Shown: positions 28,984 through 50,583 of the stretch, one piece after another
Layout of the letters: every line of letters begins with the position of its first letter
Numbering within the stretch: position 1 is the first letter of the stretch
From: an uncultured Candidatus Saccharimonas sp.
GTDB taxonomy: Bacteria; Patescibacteriota; Saccharimonadia; Saccharimonadales; OMJO01
DNA length: 56,846 bases
Direction: 5' to 3'
NCBI GenBank assembly: GCA_943353165.1
Contig: CALRAM010000004.1
Coordinates: forward strand, 1 to 56,846
Made by a program: the position numbers and the translations under genes
The notes under the pieces: generated by a model
Told to the model about the DNA's origin: nothing
Database searches by the model: none
What the model saw: the letters and a program-made list of their open reading frames with translations, nothing else

Positions 28984-29059
28984 GGGGGTGTAGCTCAGTG
29001 GTTAGAGCAGTCGGCTCATAACCGATTGGTCGAAAGTTCAATTCTTTCCACCCCCACCA
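28984..29059 (+). tRNA. tRNA with CAT anticodon, most like tRNA-Ile2 (lysidine-modified); elongator Met is not excluded
   Basis: The cloverleaf folds by hand: acceptor GGGGGTG/CACCCCC, D arm GCTCAGTGGTTAGAGC, anticodon arm GTCGG-CTCATAA-CCGAT, T arm GAAAG-TTCAATT-CTTTC, encoded CCA. The anticodon arm CGGCTCATAACCG resembles known Ile2 tRNAs. A hairpin-plus-T-tract terminator follows (29062..29090). Confidence 0.9.
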
Positions 29060-30263: not shown

Positions 30264-30365
30264 ATTGCGATACCTTTTTAGTTATGCTTTAAAGTATAGG
30301 ATTATTATCTAGCAATTACTAGTATCAAAAACAATACACATGACGGCGTGGCGGGTGTCTGATTT

Positions 30366-30559
30366 TGGTAGCGGCCGTTCGACTATGAGGCCCGAGTCTC
30401 ATCGCTCAGGCACGAATAGGGGCAGGACTCGGTCACCTCTGGCGACCCCAGAAAAACATCTTTGCAAACCAGTTTGCAAGAGTTTGTTCCCGTCCATCCC
30501 GCCCCCGGCGGGATTCCCCTGCGACCTTTTAGCGTCGCTGATTCGAGAACTAACCATGA
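30366..30559 (-). other. GC-rich structured non-coding segment carrying the 3'-half blocks of tRNA-fMet (AAGGTCGCAGG / GAGTCCTGCCCC / CGCTACCA) separated by 87-nt and 45-nt hairpin-rich insertions
   Basis: Direct comparison with the intact tRNA at 30597..30671. Blocks are at 30518-28, 30419-30 and 30366-73 (plus coordinates). The inserts fold into hairpins, e.g. ATCCCGC-CGGGG-GCGGGAT and GGTCGCC-AGA-GGTGACC. The ORFs here are spurious. Confidence 0.6.
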
Positions 30560-30592
30560 CCAAAACAAAAGCCCATCCTAAGATGGGCACTT
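30560..30592 (-). terminator. intrinsic terminator after tRNA-fMet
   Basis: Minus strand: GCCCATC-TTAG-GATGGGC followed by TTTTGTTTT. Confidence 0.8.
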
Positions 30593-30596
30593 GTTT

Positions 30597-30671
30597 TGGT
30601 AGCGGGGGCAGGACTCGAACCTGCGACCTTGTGGTTATGAGCCACACGAGCTGCCACTGCTCTACCCCGCG
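30597..30671 (-). tRNA. initiator tRNA-fMet (CAT)
   Basis: Minus strand: CGCGGGGTAGAGCAGTGGCAGCTCGTGTGGCTCATAACCACAAGGTCGCAGGTTCGAGTCCTGCCCCCGCTACCA. It has an unpaired 1:72 position (C:U) and high similarity to bacterial initiator tRNAs. CCA is encoded. Confidence 0.9.
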
Positions 30672-30694
30672 ATATTGTTGGACTATAGTTGAAA

Positions 30695-30801
30695 GGTTCG
30701 GCGGGAAAGTAGGGTCGTTGGCTCATAATGAGCGATTGACTCACGATGAGCTGCCACTGCCCCGCCTGTCTTTCCGACAGGACGGACAGGTCTACCCCGC
30801 G
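30695..30801 (-). other. tRNA-fMet-like 5' mosaic: CGCGGGGTAGA + 30-nt hairpin insert + GCAGTGGCAGCTC + divergent tail containing GCTCATTATGAGC
   Basis: The 11-nt and 13-nt blocks (plus the 5-nt upstream flank AATAT) are identical to the intact tRNA 130 nt downstream. The insert is CCTGTCCGTCCTGTCGGAAAGACAGGCGGG (30761..30790). It lies directly behind a TTGACT-N17-TAAAAT promoter. Confidence 0.6.
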
Positions 30802-30836
30802 ATATTAGTATTTTGTTAGTTGCAAAACCTTGTACA

Positions 30837-30865
30837 ATTTTAGCAAACAGGGGTAAATAAGTCAA
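30837..30865 (-). promoter_or_regulatory. sigma70-type promoter of the tRNA-fMet locus (TTGACT-N17-TAAAAT)
   Basis: Minus strand: TTGACTtatttacccctgtttgcTAAAAT. The spacer shares TTTACCCCTGT with the tRNA-Lys promoter. Confidence 0.65.
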
Positions 30866-30891: not shown

Positions 30892-30939
30892 TTGACATAT
30901 AAGCAAAAGCGTGTATAATAGCTAGTGTTGTCATGACAA
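30892..30939 (+). promoter_or_regulatory. consensus promoter TTGACA-N16-TATAAT followed by a perfect 12-bp palindrome TTGTCATGACAA (putative operator)
   Basis: TTGACA at 30892-97, TATAAT at 30914-19, palindrome at 30928-39 around the predicted transcription start. Confidence 0.65.
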
Positions 30940-31049: not shown

Positions 31050-31066
31050 TAAATTTCTGCATACAA

Positions 31067-31100
31067 AAAAAGAGCCTCCAAAGCTGGAAGCTCTTTTTTA
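31067..31100 (+). terminator. intrinsic terminator
   Basis: AGAGCCTCCA-aagc-TGGAAGCTCT followed by TTTTTT. Confidence 0.75.
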
Positions 31101-31235
31101 AATTTTTTGGAGTTTTTCTTTGCTACTAAATATAGACCTTATTTTTTAAAACAACAAGCTTATGTTTGTAGTCAAAAAAACTAGCCAGATGTAGTATTTT
31201 GTGGTATATTCACCTCTGTTTACAAGTATAGATAT

Positions 31236-31312
31236 GGCGGCGTAGCTCAGATGGTTAGAGCGCAGGACTCATAAGCCTGAGGTCACTGGTTCAATTCCAG
31301 TCGCCGCTACCA
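31236..31312 (+). tRNA. elongator tRNA-Met (CAT)
   Basis: GGCGGCGTAGCTCAGATGGTTAGAGCGCAGGACTCATAAGCCTGAGGTCACTGGTTCAATTCCAGTCGCCGCTACCA. The cloverleaf folds. It resembles Gram-positive elongator Met tRNAs. An extended -10 TGGTATATT lies at 31202. Confidence 0.88.
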
Positions 31313-31350: not shown

Positions 31351-31458
31351 TAAAACCGTAGAAGTCAGCTATACGTAAAGTGCCAAAAAGCTTAAAAAGT
31401 TTTGCCTGTGGGCTCCATAGTGTATGATAGGGCAATATCAAAGAAGGAGAACCAAAAA

Positions 31459-31695
31459 ATGTCAGGTGAAAAGCAAAGACAAAAGCAAGTAGAAAAAAAT
31501 TCAAACGAGCGAACGCGCGAAGTTAGCGCCCAGAATGTTGGCGAACAGGCTGTGGCAGGCGCCAGCCCCGAAGCTCAGAAATCTGCCGAAGAACTCAAAA
31601 ACGATATTGACTCTTTGTTGGACGAAATAGATTTAGTATTAGAAGAAAACGCCGAGGAGTTTGTGCGCAGCTACCTACAACAAGGTGGCGAATAG
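31459..31695 (+). CDS. pup: prokaryotic ubiquitin-like protein Pup (C-terminal GGE)
   Basis: 78 aa, AAGGAGA RBS 8 nt upstream. The C-terminal half DIDSLLDEIDLVLEENAEEFVRSYLQQGGE matches the Pup hallmark (M. tuberculosis ...DDLLDEIDDVLEENAEDFVRAYVQKGGQ). The N-terminal half is disordered and charged. The track ORF (31402) has a spurious 19-aa extension. Confidence 0.85.
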   Translation: MSGEKQRQKQVEKNSNERTREVSAQNVGEQAVAGASPEAQKSAEELKNDIDSLLDEIDLVLEENAEEFVRSYLQQGGE

Positions 31696-50265: not shown

Positions 50266-50430
50266 TTCATTGGAGGCCCAGCGAGGCTCGCCCACATTCT
50301 GCCGGCCCAGAACTTTCATACTAGCAACAAGTTACTAATCTGAAAGATTCTCTTGCGACCCGCCACAGGCGGGTCTCACTCACCACACGCTTCGCGTGCC
50401 GCGAGTTCAAATCTCTGCGAGATCTCTCCA
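50266..50430. other. structured non-coding spacer containing tRNA-Lys-derived pieces
   Basis: ttcattggagg-cccagcgaggctcg (50266-90) repeats the tRNA-Lys 3' end plus 5 flanking nt (50461-86). On the plus strand, GCGTGCCGCGAGTTCAAATCTCTGCGAGATCTCTCCA (50394-50430) is an inverted tRNA 3'-half look-alike. Also contains the hairpin GACCCGCC-ACA-GGCGGGTC. Confidence 0.55.
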
Positions 50431-50541: not shown

Positions 50542-50554
50542 GACGGTCTAGGCT

Positions 50555-50583
50555 ATTATGCTACAACAGGGGTAAAAATACAA
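50555..50583 (-). promoter_or_regulatory. promoter of tRNA-Lys (TTGTAT-N17-CATAAT)
   Basis: Minus strand: TTGTATttttacccctgttgtagCATAAT. The spacer shares TTTACCCCTGT with the fMet-locus promoter. Confidence 0.55.

Follow-up and report, generated by a model that had tools for sequence, protein, structure and literature searches.

Partial tRNA gene copies interleaved with hairpin-rich cassettes behind tRNA-fMet and tRNA-Lys in a Saccharibacteria genome

The tRNA-like blocks on both sides of the initiator tRNA gene of an uncultured Candidatus Saccharimonas sp. are partial gene copies interleaved with hairpin cassettes of an undescribed family, and not a second tRNA. The window, i.e., the whole stretch of DNA that was analysed (56,846 nt), contained one of these cassette types behind tRNA-Lys as well; strains differed by repeat-flanked insertions and deletions, and the cassettes carried compensatory changes. 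Our best explanation, which we offer tentatively and at somewhat below even confidence, is that the T loop and the 3′ end of the tRNA form a recombination hot spot, with small non-autonomous cassettes that were later reshuffled by homologous recombination and gene conversion.

Layout of the tRNA-fMet locus

All features of the locus lay on the minus strand, and the blocks matched the intact tRNA exactly (Table 1). The number of occurrences expected in the window was 0.03 for the 11-mer and 0.00 for the 12-mer, and each was found twice; CGCTACCA was weak by itself (5 matches vs 1.3 expected); the blocks and inserts of the locus are far above chance. Together with the promoter and the terminator, they were found where the preliminary description had put them, and the inserts fell, as it had said, in the D stem (between nt 11 and 12), the T loop (T54-T55 replaced) and the acceptor 3′ strand (linear nt 67/68). 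The genome had also been called AT-rich; its G+C content is about 44%, so it is not markedly AT-rich. The ORF over the locus runs antisense to the tRNA and gave no Pfam match, in agreement with its earlier dismissal as an artefact. The same ORF is present as a "hypothetical protein" in public collections.

Table 1. Features of the tRNA-fMet and tRNA-Lys loci in the window
Feature	Coordinates	Strand	Remark
Promoter TTGACT-17-TAAAAT, with TG extension	30865-30837	-	heads tRNA-fMet unit
Element 1, 130-nt pseudo-tRNA unit	30806-30677	-	old tandem copy of tRNA gene unit
Element 1 head: AATAT+CGCGGGGTAGA	30806-30791	-	exact match to tRNA
Element 1 hairpin, 30 nt	30790-30761	-	insertion between nt 11 and 12
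Element 1 block GCAGTGGCAGCTC	30760-30748	-	exact match to tRNA
Element 1 tail, 71 nt	30747-30677	-	holds palindrome GCTCATTATGAGC (30733-30721)
Intact tRNA-Met(CAT)	30671-30597	-	ARAGORN; Rfam RF00005, 63.8 bits
Bidirectional intrinsic terminator	30588-30571 (stem region 30600-30559)	-	stem reaches over tRNA ACCA end
Inverted copy of tRNA variable-loop, T-stem, T-loop segment (CTCGAATCAGCGAC, 14 nt)	30547-30534	-	pairs with following direct piece
Element 3 block AAGGTCGCAGG, direct copy of tRNA nt 43-53	30528-30518	-	exact match
87-nt element 3 insert as first delimited	30517-30431	-
Type A cassette core, 86 nt	30517-30432	-	alignments, covariation; CM R2 139 bits
Type A hairpin P2	30514-30496	-
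Type A hairpin P3 and outer helix	30490-30451	-
Type A hairpin P4′	30447-30431	-	conserved G.T wobble; shares C at 30431 with next 3′ piece
CGAGTCCTGCCCC, direct copy of tRNA nt 56-68	30431-30419	-	exact match; repeat D11
GAGTCCTGCCCC, element 3	30430-30419	-	true match begins one base earlier, C at 30431
45-nt hairpin insert ("type E"), acceptor 3′ strand	30418-30374	-
CGCTACCA	30373-30366	-	end of partial tRNA copy
tRNA-Lys(UUU)	50541-50466	-	second tRNA gene with type A cassette
Terminator palindrome including TCCA end of tRNA-Lys	50469-50427	-
Second type A cassette	50410-50271	-	CM R2 64.7 bits, E ~1e-13, full length
Inverted tRNA-Lys piece	50410-50394	-	part of second type A cassette
Direct tRNA-Lys piece	50390-50378	-	part of second type A cassette
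Lys-linked type A core, 87 nt	50377-50291	-
Copy of tRNA-Lys nt 56-76, 1-nt deletion	50290-50271	-

The intact gene encodes an initiator-type tRNA, with a C1xU72 mismatch and A11:U24, homologous to tRNA-fMet genes of the candidate phyla radiation (CPR). The earlier initiator call stands as to type; of the three canonical G-C pairs of the anticodon stem, one is missing. Its 5′ half is common to more than 120 CPR tRNA-fMet loci, and homologous promoters were observed immediately 5′ of tRNA-fMet in the related loci L092, L154 and L155. The locus probably has one functional tRNA-fMet, whose transcription would start from the promoter at 30865 and stop at the terminator at 30588-30571; this terminator is the centre of an imperfect palindrome of about 49 nt (30630-30582 vs 30577-30528, repeat I6).

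Element 1 opens with AATAT and the 5′ 24 nt of the tRNA, which a hairpin interrupts; a diverged 53-nt remainder and an 18-nt spacer follow, and the tail has a palindrome at the anticodon-loop remnant. The 30-nt hairpin insertion was observed in this species only. Two tandem copies of the element were present in strain L153, the second without the hairpin, and a truncated copy in strain L002; the copy in the window is a recombinant with its head from L153 copy a and its tail from copy b. Element 1 is an old tandem pseudo-copy of the tRNA. The upstream part of the locus would represent decayed tandem tRNA units, whose 5′ 24 nt may be re-homogenised against the live gene and whose copy number may change by unequal crossing-over. 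Element 3 copies part of the tRNA 3′ half and is preceded by an inverted T-arm piece that tracked the host T stem in L117, L108 and L002; a second palindrome was centred on the P1 loop. Among the explanations offered at the outset, two hold in part: gene conversion of old duplicates fits element 1, and debris of site-specific integration at tRNA-fMet fits element 3 and a strain-variable island.

The same description had seen a single insertion-riddled tRNA around the intact one. Although the exact blocks follow the tRNA order and a promoter lies 5′ of element 1, it is very improbable that an expanded, split or processed tRNA-like RNA has elements 1 and 3 as its two halves. The terminator stands between the halves, the anticodon arm is absent from both, and the flanks vary independently between strains: sister strains have the same element 3 with an element 1 that is duplicated, cut short or otherwise different. 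Folding the two elements together gained only 6.6 kcal/mol and gave no acceptor stem. Neither element was scored as a tRNA by Rfam at E<=10, and ARAGORN detected no tRNA in element 1, element 3, the two joined or the blocks alone. A split or permuted tRNA was rejected on the missing anticodon arm, the cofold and the independent variation of the halves.

Hairpin cassettes of types A and B

Two covariance models were built, one of type A (alignment A3) and one of the type B core (A2). In type A, 91% of cells were paired vs 33-48% in slid controls and double changes affected 25 of the 44 pairs (2-6 in controls), and in the type B core 93% of cells were paired vs 30-48%; these values derive from few sequences and a model-fitted alignment, and folded DNA would yield the same signal. 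The compensatory changes argue that types A and B are conserved structured elements, either RNA or folded DNA. The initial view that the inserts are structured and not the product of plain decay is borne out by these conserved families, and the relatives showed covariation and more than a plain tRNA between unrelated flanks. Type A homologues were found in L117, L108 and L155, the core measuring 85-99 nt in all of the five copies except that of L108, where it is larger, and L105 had a homologous, shorter insert at the place of the 45-nt insert.

The type A model further detected a second copy behind tRNA-Lys (full-length match, 50282-50418), so that the window holds two type A copies, each behind a tRNA gene. 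Pieces of tRNA-Lys lie on both sides of this core, split at the same T-loop position as in the fMet-linked cassette. The Lys-linked core agreed with the fMet-linked core of L155 at 88% of aligned positions and with that of its own genome at 74%, and the Lys-linked cassette was 99.8-100% conserved in strains L285 and L286.

These conserved folds bear on a reading that we consider possible, if doubtful, namely that the host encodes the cassettes as structured RNAs linked to the respective tRNA as a trailer or by read-through, with the three-hairpin core displayed on a structure that imitates the T arm and 3′ end of the tRNA. The antisense segment could pair with the T arm of the tRNA itself or with the direct copy, and such an RNA would act in tRNA maturation, quality control or regulation. 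The strong compensatory variation of both cores speaks for it, as do the P4′ G.T wobble kept at the same position in all type A cores amid covarying neighbours, the sense-strand excess of G.T over A.C in type A (12 vs 3), and the CUUG/CUGG tetraloops on variable stems in type B. The core, moreover, outlasted the decayed tRNA-like 3′ piece in L108 and L154, the tRNA-Lys copy was invariant between strains, and no recombinase was seen nearby among the scanned window ORFs. On the other hand, a strong bidirectional terminator precedes the cassettes, with no promoter-like site between its end at 30571 and the type A cassette; some strains of a single species had type B and others lacked it, and tandem and decayed copies occurred within one locus. 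The T stem of the modules was often unpairable: the foreign 5′ half often blocks the pairing, so the tRNA mimic lacks conservation at the level of an RNA helix. In addition, type B has a C.A mismatch fixed on the sense strand next to covarying pairs. Sense and antisense folding energies gave no strand preference. When Rfam 15 was searched at gathering and permissive thresholds with the window locus and 10 related loci, only tRNAs were returned, which leaves the RNA reading without a matching family and removes a known Rfam family, an outcome foreseen in the preliminary description, as an explanation of the locus.

A further reading, which we regard as unlikely, invokes replication template switching at the terminator hairpin; it would have left the tRNA 3′ half partly triplicated in direct-inverted-direct order (tandem inversion duplications), with no mobile element and no function, and later snap-back events and decay would have formed the hairpins and kept them perfect. 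Template switching reportedly makes and maintains hairpins without selection on RNA (PMC8794818). The imperfect palindrome formed by the tRNA 3′ half, the terminator and the next 50 nt, the second palindrome at the P1 loop, the repetition of the palindrome layout at tRNA-Lys and the palindrome GCTCATTATGAGC at the anticodon-loop remnant of element 1 all fit it. However, template switching is unable to place the same core of about 86 nt behind two unrelated tRNA genes or into species with different T stems, and arm-to-arm copying should wipe out a wobble or mismatch fixed beside covarying pairs.

Other candidates were also rejected. A group I intron gave no RF00028 match at the locus, and group II intron ends, IS91 or Helitron-type ends, hammerhead or other small ribozymes, two-piece tmRNA, dif/Xer sites and an omega-RNA scaffold with guide were dropped for lack of matching features. 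As a separate observation, an RF00028 match was present in the elongator tRNA-Met of the sister species L008.

It is conceivable, at a probability well short of even, that the type A and B cores constitute a new class of structured element in Saccharibacteria, in which each copy, immediately behind a tRNA gene, homes to or forms part of the T loop in a copied tRNA 3′ half and includes a segment antisense to the T arm of its tRNA. Such a class would be either mobile, with a folded single strand serving to recognise the target, or a tRNA-specific RNA of regulation or processing.

Strain and species differences at the tRNA genes

Searching for homologues of the artefact ORF yielded three useful loci (L153, L154 and L155), and a second round returned only unrelated high-GC tRNA-fMet loci. 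The window has the order element 1, tRNA, type A, 45-nt insert; in L153 the order is element 1a, element 1b, tRNA, type A, 45-nt insert, island, and in L002 and L007 it is short element 1, tRNA, type A, type B, 45-nt insert, island. Differences between strains of the same species were confined to whole units. The island of about 3 kb in the sister strains sits right after CGCTACCA, between tRNA-derived GCTACCAA direct repeats, and the type B cassette is bounded by tRNA-derived direct repeats GTCCTGCCC; B was lost via two different junctions, one in the window and another in L153. An intact tRNA is here followed by same-strand 3′ copies that bracket inserted DNA as direct repeats, the pattern of attL/attR debris of tRNA-targeting integrative elements. 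Whole-unit strain differences with tRNA-derived repeats at the indels count in favour of the recombination hot spot, and so does the recombinant element 1.

Beyond the species, types A and B recurred just 3′ of tRNA-fMet in other Saccharibacteria, where element 3 had homologues without element 1. Tandem A/B units with decayed copies were found in L117, L144, L042 and L092, and several units are closed by an ACCA end and terminator of their own (module A of L117, B modules of L144 and L092), which again supports the hot spot. In the modules L155, L042a, L042b and L092a the 3′ piece was host-type and the 5′ piece had a foreign T stem or was diverged; this arrangement was seen in four of 14 modules and its reverse in only one, a small sample. 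These modules may be attR chimeras, which would fit the hot spot. The hot-spot reading is also favoured by features of CPR loci at large: same-strand 3′ fragments were common downstream among 120 CPR tRNA-fMet loci, L128 had a classical att-type repeat of 45 nt, and the unrelated locus L068 encoded an integrase N-terminal domain just after the tRNA (PF02899, 31.3 bits). In sister species synteny breaks exactly at tRNA-fMet and tRNA-Lys; the tRNA loci were absent from the same place, as judged from synteny via TilS and a DUF308 neighbour, which left no orthologous cassette for comparison. These breaks, and the presence behind tRNA-Lys of a core nearer to that of L155, likewise count for the hot spot.

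According to the mechanism that we propose, each downstream unit would start inside the tRNA T loop or 3′ end and comprise a replacement 3′ end with terminator, inverted and direct T-arm pieces and a small hairpin-rich cassette, closed by the displaced older 3′ end. Types A, B and E would be small non-autonomous units that enter or reshuffle via recombination at the T loop or 3′ end, sites of the class used by T-loop-specific tyrosine integrases, and every event would shift the older 3′ ends farther downstream. Units may then be deleted or duplicated as the repeated tRNA blocks recombine by homology, and gene conversion from the live gene could keep the blocks letter-perfect. We infer that the cassettes are mobile elements and not RNAs of the host, and that the agent is a site-specific recombinase encoded elsewhere.

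Several observations argue against this hot-spot reading. The units of 64-250 bp are too small for autonomy or for easy circularisation as duplex DNA. Neither the inverted tRNA pieces nor the direct-inverted-direct layout would be expected from simple integration, and an identical "body-less" cassette layout was found in four species. The fixed wobble and mismatch amid covarying pairs point to selection on a folded single strand, possibly RNA. Neither a recombinase nor a free copy was detected in the material scanned. A Pfam scan that covered 20 of the 38 window ORFs of at least 200 aa revealed no integrase or transposase, and inspection of translations showed no recombinase-like ORF of at least 80 aa beside the cassettes in L117 and L042 and no integrase in the L002 island. 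BLAST of the A+B region against phages and plasmids gave nothing relevant, and the INPHARED phages, PLSDB plasmids and IMG/VR yielded no free copy of attP type. Pattern scans of IMG/VR returned only unrelated phage tRNAs for the tRNA 3′ end, no match for the P2 hairpin, 120 chance matches for a loose P1 pattern (none confirmed by nhmmer), and, for the type A and B cores, matches confined to coding regions of GC-rich phages.

The locus is neither a hypothetical protein, as its deposited label has it, nor an exotic tRNA, for which it could easily be mistaken. The genomes of Saccharibacteria are tiny and contain few recognisable mobile elements, yet behind their tRNA genes, tRNA-fMet and tRNA-Lys at least, stand partial-tRNA arrays that are prone to turnover and carry cassettes absent from databases. 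If mobile, the cassettes show how DNA moves in reduced genomes and why synteny breaks at tRNAs; if RNAs, they represent a new tRNA-linked class. The covariance models make both readings testable on CPR genomes and metatranscriptomes.

Comparison with known systems

Integron attC sites and the attP(+) site of CTX phage are recombination sites on folded single strands. The cassettes resemble them in their imperfect hairpins with conserved irregularities and covarying stems, and an inverted plus a direct copy can rebuild a duplex target from one strand; the motifs are nevertheless unrelated and no link to an integron integrase or Xer was found, so the likeness is pure analogy. In Thermoproteales archaea, non-canonical introns transpose between tRNA genes. 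Related short inserts at the same non-anticodon site (the T loop) of different tRNA sequences are common to both, whereas in our bacterial host the functional tRNA genes are uninterrupted and the insert occurs only in partial copies. As regards MITEs and palindrome-associated elements of the IS200-IS605 type, two type A copies were present in 56.8 kb, both behind tRNA genes, with no transposase in the scanned window ORFs. With template-switch duplications the locus shares the direct-inverted-direct layout, the short-palindrome centres and the near-perfect hairpins, and differs in the core shared by two different tRNA genes (PMC8794818).

A study by Williams in 2002 reportedly distinguished sublocation classes of integrase crossover in tRNA genes. 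All cassette breakpoints lay at T-loop nt 53-59 or the 3′ CCA end, which are classical crossover sublocations. The tyrosine integrase of mycobacteriophage Ms6 crosses over in the tRNA T loop (PMC1762012). Unlike in such systems, no cognate integrase or free attP was found in the window ORFs scanned or in the phage, plasmid and IMG/VR collections, and the T-arm halves are separated by 65-100 nt here and not contiguous as in an attR.

The build-up of partial-tRNA arrays by serial site-specific integration at tRNA genes is an established process, which counts for the hot spot; it is known from the tycheposon islands of Prochlorococcus (bioRxiv 10.1101/2020.12.28.424599) and, with partial tmRNA, from the ssrA islands of Dehalococcoides (PMC3146451). 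The Saccharibacteria units differ from those arrays in their size (64-250 bp), in carrying neither integrase nor cargo except for the 3-kb island of the sister strains, and in fragments that are split in the T loop by a conserved hairpin core and accompanied by inverted tRNA pieces. As in those arrays, the intact gene is proximal and same-strand 3′ fragments are distal, older units are pushed outward by newer ones, strains differ by whole units, and tRNA-derived repeats bracket the islands.

Organization and strain variation of the tRNA-fMet locus

The intact tRNA-Met(CAT) was found to be of the initiator type, with a C1xU72 mismatch and A11:U24, and its 5′ half is common to at least 120 tRNA-fMet genes of the candidate phyla radiation (CPR). 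It lies between an upstream pseudo-tRNA unit (element 1) and a partial copy of its own 3′ half (element 3). The tRNA-identical blocks reported in the preliminary description proved to be exact and far more frequent than expected by chance; tRNA likeness was only faint in the 53-nt stretch of element 1, where CTCATTA survives as a remnant and CCCGCCGAACC forms the end.

Features of the window at and near its tRNA genes
Feature	Positions	Strand	Remarks
TG-extended promoter	30865-30837	minus	TTGACT-17-TAAAAT; ahead of all three elements
Element 1	30806-30677	minus	AATAT + tRNA nt 1-11, 30-nt hairpin, tRNA nt 12-24, 53 nt, 18-nt spacer
Intact tRNA-Met(CAT)	30671-30597	minus	ARAGORN call; Rfam tRNA, 63.8 bits
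Bidirectional terminator	30588-30571	minus	3′ of tRNA-fMet
Element 3, first block	30528-30518	minus	AAGGTCGCAGG; exact tRNA match
Element 3, hairpins	30517-30432	minus	86 nt
Element 3, second block	30431-30419	minus	CGAGTCCTGCCCC; exact tRNA match
Element 3, insert	30418-30374	minus	45 nt
Element 3, last block	30373-30366	minus	CGCTACCA; exact tRNA match
Next promoter-like site	30328-30301		assigned to type IV pilin-like gene
Artefact ORF	30340-30819	plus	159 aa; antisense to entire locus
tRNA-Lys(UUU)	50541-50466	minus	second type A cassette directly downstream
Type A model match	50282-50418		full-length; 64.7 bits, E ~1e-13
Elongator tRNA-Met	28984-29059		intron-less
Consensus promoter	30892-30919	plus	perfect TTGACA-16-TATAAT; divergent from tRNA-fMet promoter; ~320 nt upstream of tRNA(CAT)
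Hairpin/terminator	31066-31099		strong; between consensus promoter and tRNA(CAT)
tRNA(CAT)	31236-31312		
Pup-family ORF	31402-31695	plus	97 aa
C-rich motif, fMet promoter region	30837-30865		
C-rich motif, Lys promoter region	~50550-50580		
C-rich motif, tRNA(CAT) promoter region	~31200-31230		

It had been proposed that the flanking elements form one insertion-riddled, split or expanded tRNA-like gene bracketing the intact tRNA. Neither element was matched by the tRNA model, any other Rfam model or ARAGORN; the reading was rejected, since the anticodon arm is missing, no acceptor stem was formed when both elements were cofolded, a terminator separates the halves and the halves vary independently. 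The ORF across the locus was, as suspected, an annotation artefact; public collections list it as a called "protein", with variants of 149, 163 and 169 aa.

Strains of the window species, a Candidatus Saccharibacteria bacterium, were gathered as contigs with an identical neighbouring phosphatase (two types), plus a third strain through an ORF search; the nearest species-level genome shows 94% TilS identity. In the window and three strains (L001, L003, L004), element 1 and the tRNA are followed by a core unit of hairpin cassette family A and the 45-nt unit. L153 carries two tandem copies of element 1, then the tRNA, A unit and 45-nt unit as in the window, and finally an island of ~3 kb; its second copy lacks the 30-nt hairpin and differs by four point changes within the tRNA-like head. 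Element 1 of the window combines the head of one L153 copy (a) with the tail of the other (b). L002 and L007 have a short, different element 1 (CGCGGGGTAG plus ~40 nt), the tRNA, the A unit, an extra unit of cassette family B (GGTCGCAGGTTCG, 65 nt, GTCCTGCCCCC), the 45-nt unit and the island. A direct repeat, GTCCTGCCC, borders the type B indel, and type B is missing from the window and L153 via two different junctions. The island is bordered by GCTACCAA and inserted exactly behind the last CGCTACCA.

From these polymorphisms, which involve whole units, it follows that the two tRNA flanks evolve independently of each other. The flanks probably change through unequal crossing-over and repeat-mediated deletion, and conversion against the live tRNA gene offers the best explanation for the exact identity of the blocks.

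The island (L002:7878-10855; also in L007 and L153, absent from the window) carries genes for a membrane protein (193 aa), a YdjC-family protein (220 aa) and a further protein of 127 aa, and no integrase was seen among the ORF translations of the L002 copy. Elsewhere, in a sister Saccharibacteria species (L008:140-462), the anticodon loop of the elongator tRNA-Met is interrupted by a group I intron of ~245 nt (RF00028, 79.2 bits), whereas the window orthologue is intron-less; three of the at least 120 CPR tRNA-fMet loci end abruptly within this loop, a hint that they hold introns as well. A match to the Pup (prokaryotic ubiquitin-like protein) family in the window (PF05639, 70.8 bits) was unexpected for a Saccharibacterium. 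Rfam gave only weak, leader-like matches, all below threshold, between the consensus promoter and tRNA(CAT). A C-rich spacer motif, ACCCCTGTT or ACCTCTGTT, stands directly ahead of the -10 box in three tRNA promoter regions and is present in other Saccharibacteria loci.

Hairpin cassettes in other species and behind tRNA-Lys

A metagenome scan with the 5′ 24-mer of the window tRNA returned the at least 120 CPR loci, among which same-strand pieces of the tRNA 3′ part are common 3′ of the gene. Within the clade sharing the window's anticodon stem, this downstream DNA sorts into recurring types. Type A was found at tRNA-fMet in the window species and three others (L117, L108, L155), in the order terminator, ~12 nt, inverted T-arm 5′ half, 7-8-nt loop, direct copy to T54, three-hairpin core, and the remainder of the tRNA, C56 through the CCA end. 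Type B is carried by L002, L117, L154 and, twice each, L042, L144 and L092. Most type B copies have an inverted tRNA piece, and five (L117b, L042b, L092b, L144a, L154) a UUUA-loop hairpin (UUU in L092b) followed by a direct copy to G57; L002 lacks both piece and hairpin. In the type B core, GCGCA and CGAGCA motifs flank a stem with a CUUG or CUGG tetraloop, and tRNA sequence restarts at G59 past the core; hits of the type B model were confined to tRNA-fMet loci within this clade. A shorter homologue of the 45-nt insert occupies the identical acceptor-strand position in L105. In other CPR clades, T-arm copies are broken at nt 53/54 by a 19-nt hairpin (L040, L074) or 78 nt (L100), and L085 has 113-nt tandem units beginning in the T loop.

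The second type A cassette of the window, detected with a covariance model of type A, has the tRNA-fMet layout, and its terminator stem takes in TCCA of tRNA-Lys. Upstream of the 87-nt core lie an inverted piece of tRNA-Lys nt ~41-58 with two mismatches, then a GAA loop and a direct copy; on the downstream side follow nt 56-76 of tRNA-Lys, less one base. The core is accordingly a discrete unit, now lodged within the T loop of partial copies from two unrelated tRNA genes. The cassette is unchanged in two other strains, and the remaining two window tRNA genes have plain terminators. In one strain (ENA ERZ1305449), the ComEC-DUF308 spacer that houses tRNA-Lys and its cassette is ~150 nt longer; an extra cassette could be present.

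Two further arrangements were observed at tRNA-fMet loci. In a downstream type D (L056, L119, L145), the terminator is followed by ..GTTA..AGGTTCGAGTCCTGCC, and in L056 the unit is repeated ~600 nt on, so that the pair brackets an ORF for a small membrane protein in the manner of a miniature island. A conserved hairpin-rich leader, absent from the window species, lies between promoter and tRNA in one subclade (L117, L108, L119 and L135), ~140 nt upstream of the tRNA; a decayed 5′ piece of a tRNA may be part of it.

Structural conservation and origin of the cassettes

Pairing was kept in 91% of type A cells (33-48% with slid partners) with double changes in 25 of 44 pairs (2-6 in controls), values reached by none of 500 shuffles, and in 93% of type B core cells (30-48% in controls) with double changes in 8 of 14 pairs (0-3 in controls), on few sequences and with one alignment model-fitted, and folded DNA would give an equal signal. 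A G.T wobble is fixed in position in hairpin P4′ of every type A copy while neighbouring pairs covary, a C.A mismatch is retained in the outer stem of most type B copies, and G.T outnumbers A.C by 12 to 3 on the type A sense strand. The covariation, conserved wobble and tetraloops would suit a tRNA-linked structured RNA, the main rival reading, which we consider less likely than not. Against it, a terminator precedes the cassettes, a promoter is lacking, presence differs between strains and the module T stems are often unable to pair.

An imperfect palindrome, its ends well preserved and its middle decayed, is made up of the tRNA 3′ half plus the left arm of the terminator (30630-30582) and the next 50 nt (30577-30528). 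The inverted tRNA piece in turn pairs with the direct one, which gives both tRNA loci a direct-inverted-direct arrangement. A purely mutational origin through template switching would account for the palindromes, and one study reports that this process can maintain hairpins without RNA-level selection (PMC8794818). Such arm-to-arm copying should, however, erase fixed irregular pairs, and the shared core is left unaccounted for; we regard this origin as improbable.

We tentatively favour a recombination hot spot at the tRNA T loop and 3′ end, where small non-autonomous cassettes would gather, to be reshuffled later via homologous recombination and gene conversion. Consistent with such a hot spot, the indels and the island are repeat-flanked, and there are tandem and decayed copies, several of which (in L117, L144 and L092) own a CCA end and terminator; 4 of 14 modules combine a host-type 3′ piece with a foreign or diverged 5′ piece, one showing the reverse. 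Two tRNAs share the same core, and the similarities between cores are discordant, the Lys-linked core agreeing with the fMet-linked core of L155 at 88% of aligned positions and with that of its own genome at 74%. Sister-species synteny breaks at both tRNAs, and integrase-linked and att-type cases occur elsewhere in the CPR set (an integrase N-terminal domain directly behind tRNA-fMet in L068; a classical 45-nt att-type repeat in L128). Against it, no recombinase was found among the 20 of 38 window ORFs of at least 200 aa scanned with Pfam, whose domains were of housekeeping type, nor a free copy in INPHARED phages, PLSDB plasmids or IMG/VR; the units are tiny, and inverted pieces are not predicted from simple integration.

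The nearest known systems are arrays of partial tRNA or tmRNA genes from serial integration, as in tycheposons (bioRxiv 10.1101/2020.12.28.424599) and the Dehalococcoides ssrA islands (PMC3146451), together with T-loop-specific integrases, for instance that of Ms6 (PMC1762012). Features of the window loci without a described counterpart are the occupation of two tRNA genes with no recombinase found, the inverted tRNA piece alongside, and the conserved hairpin core between the T-arm halves.
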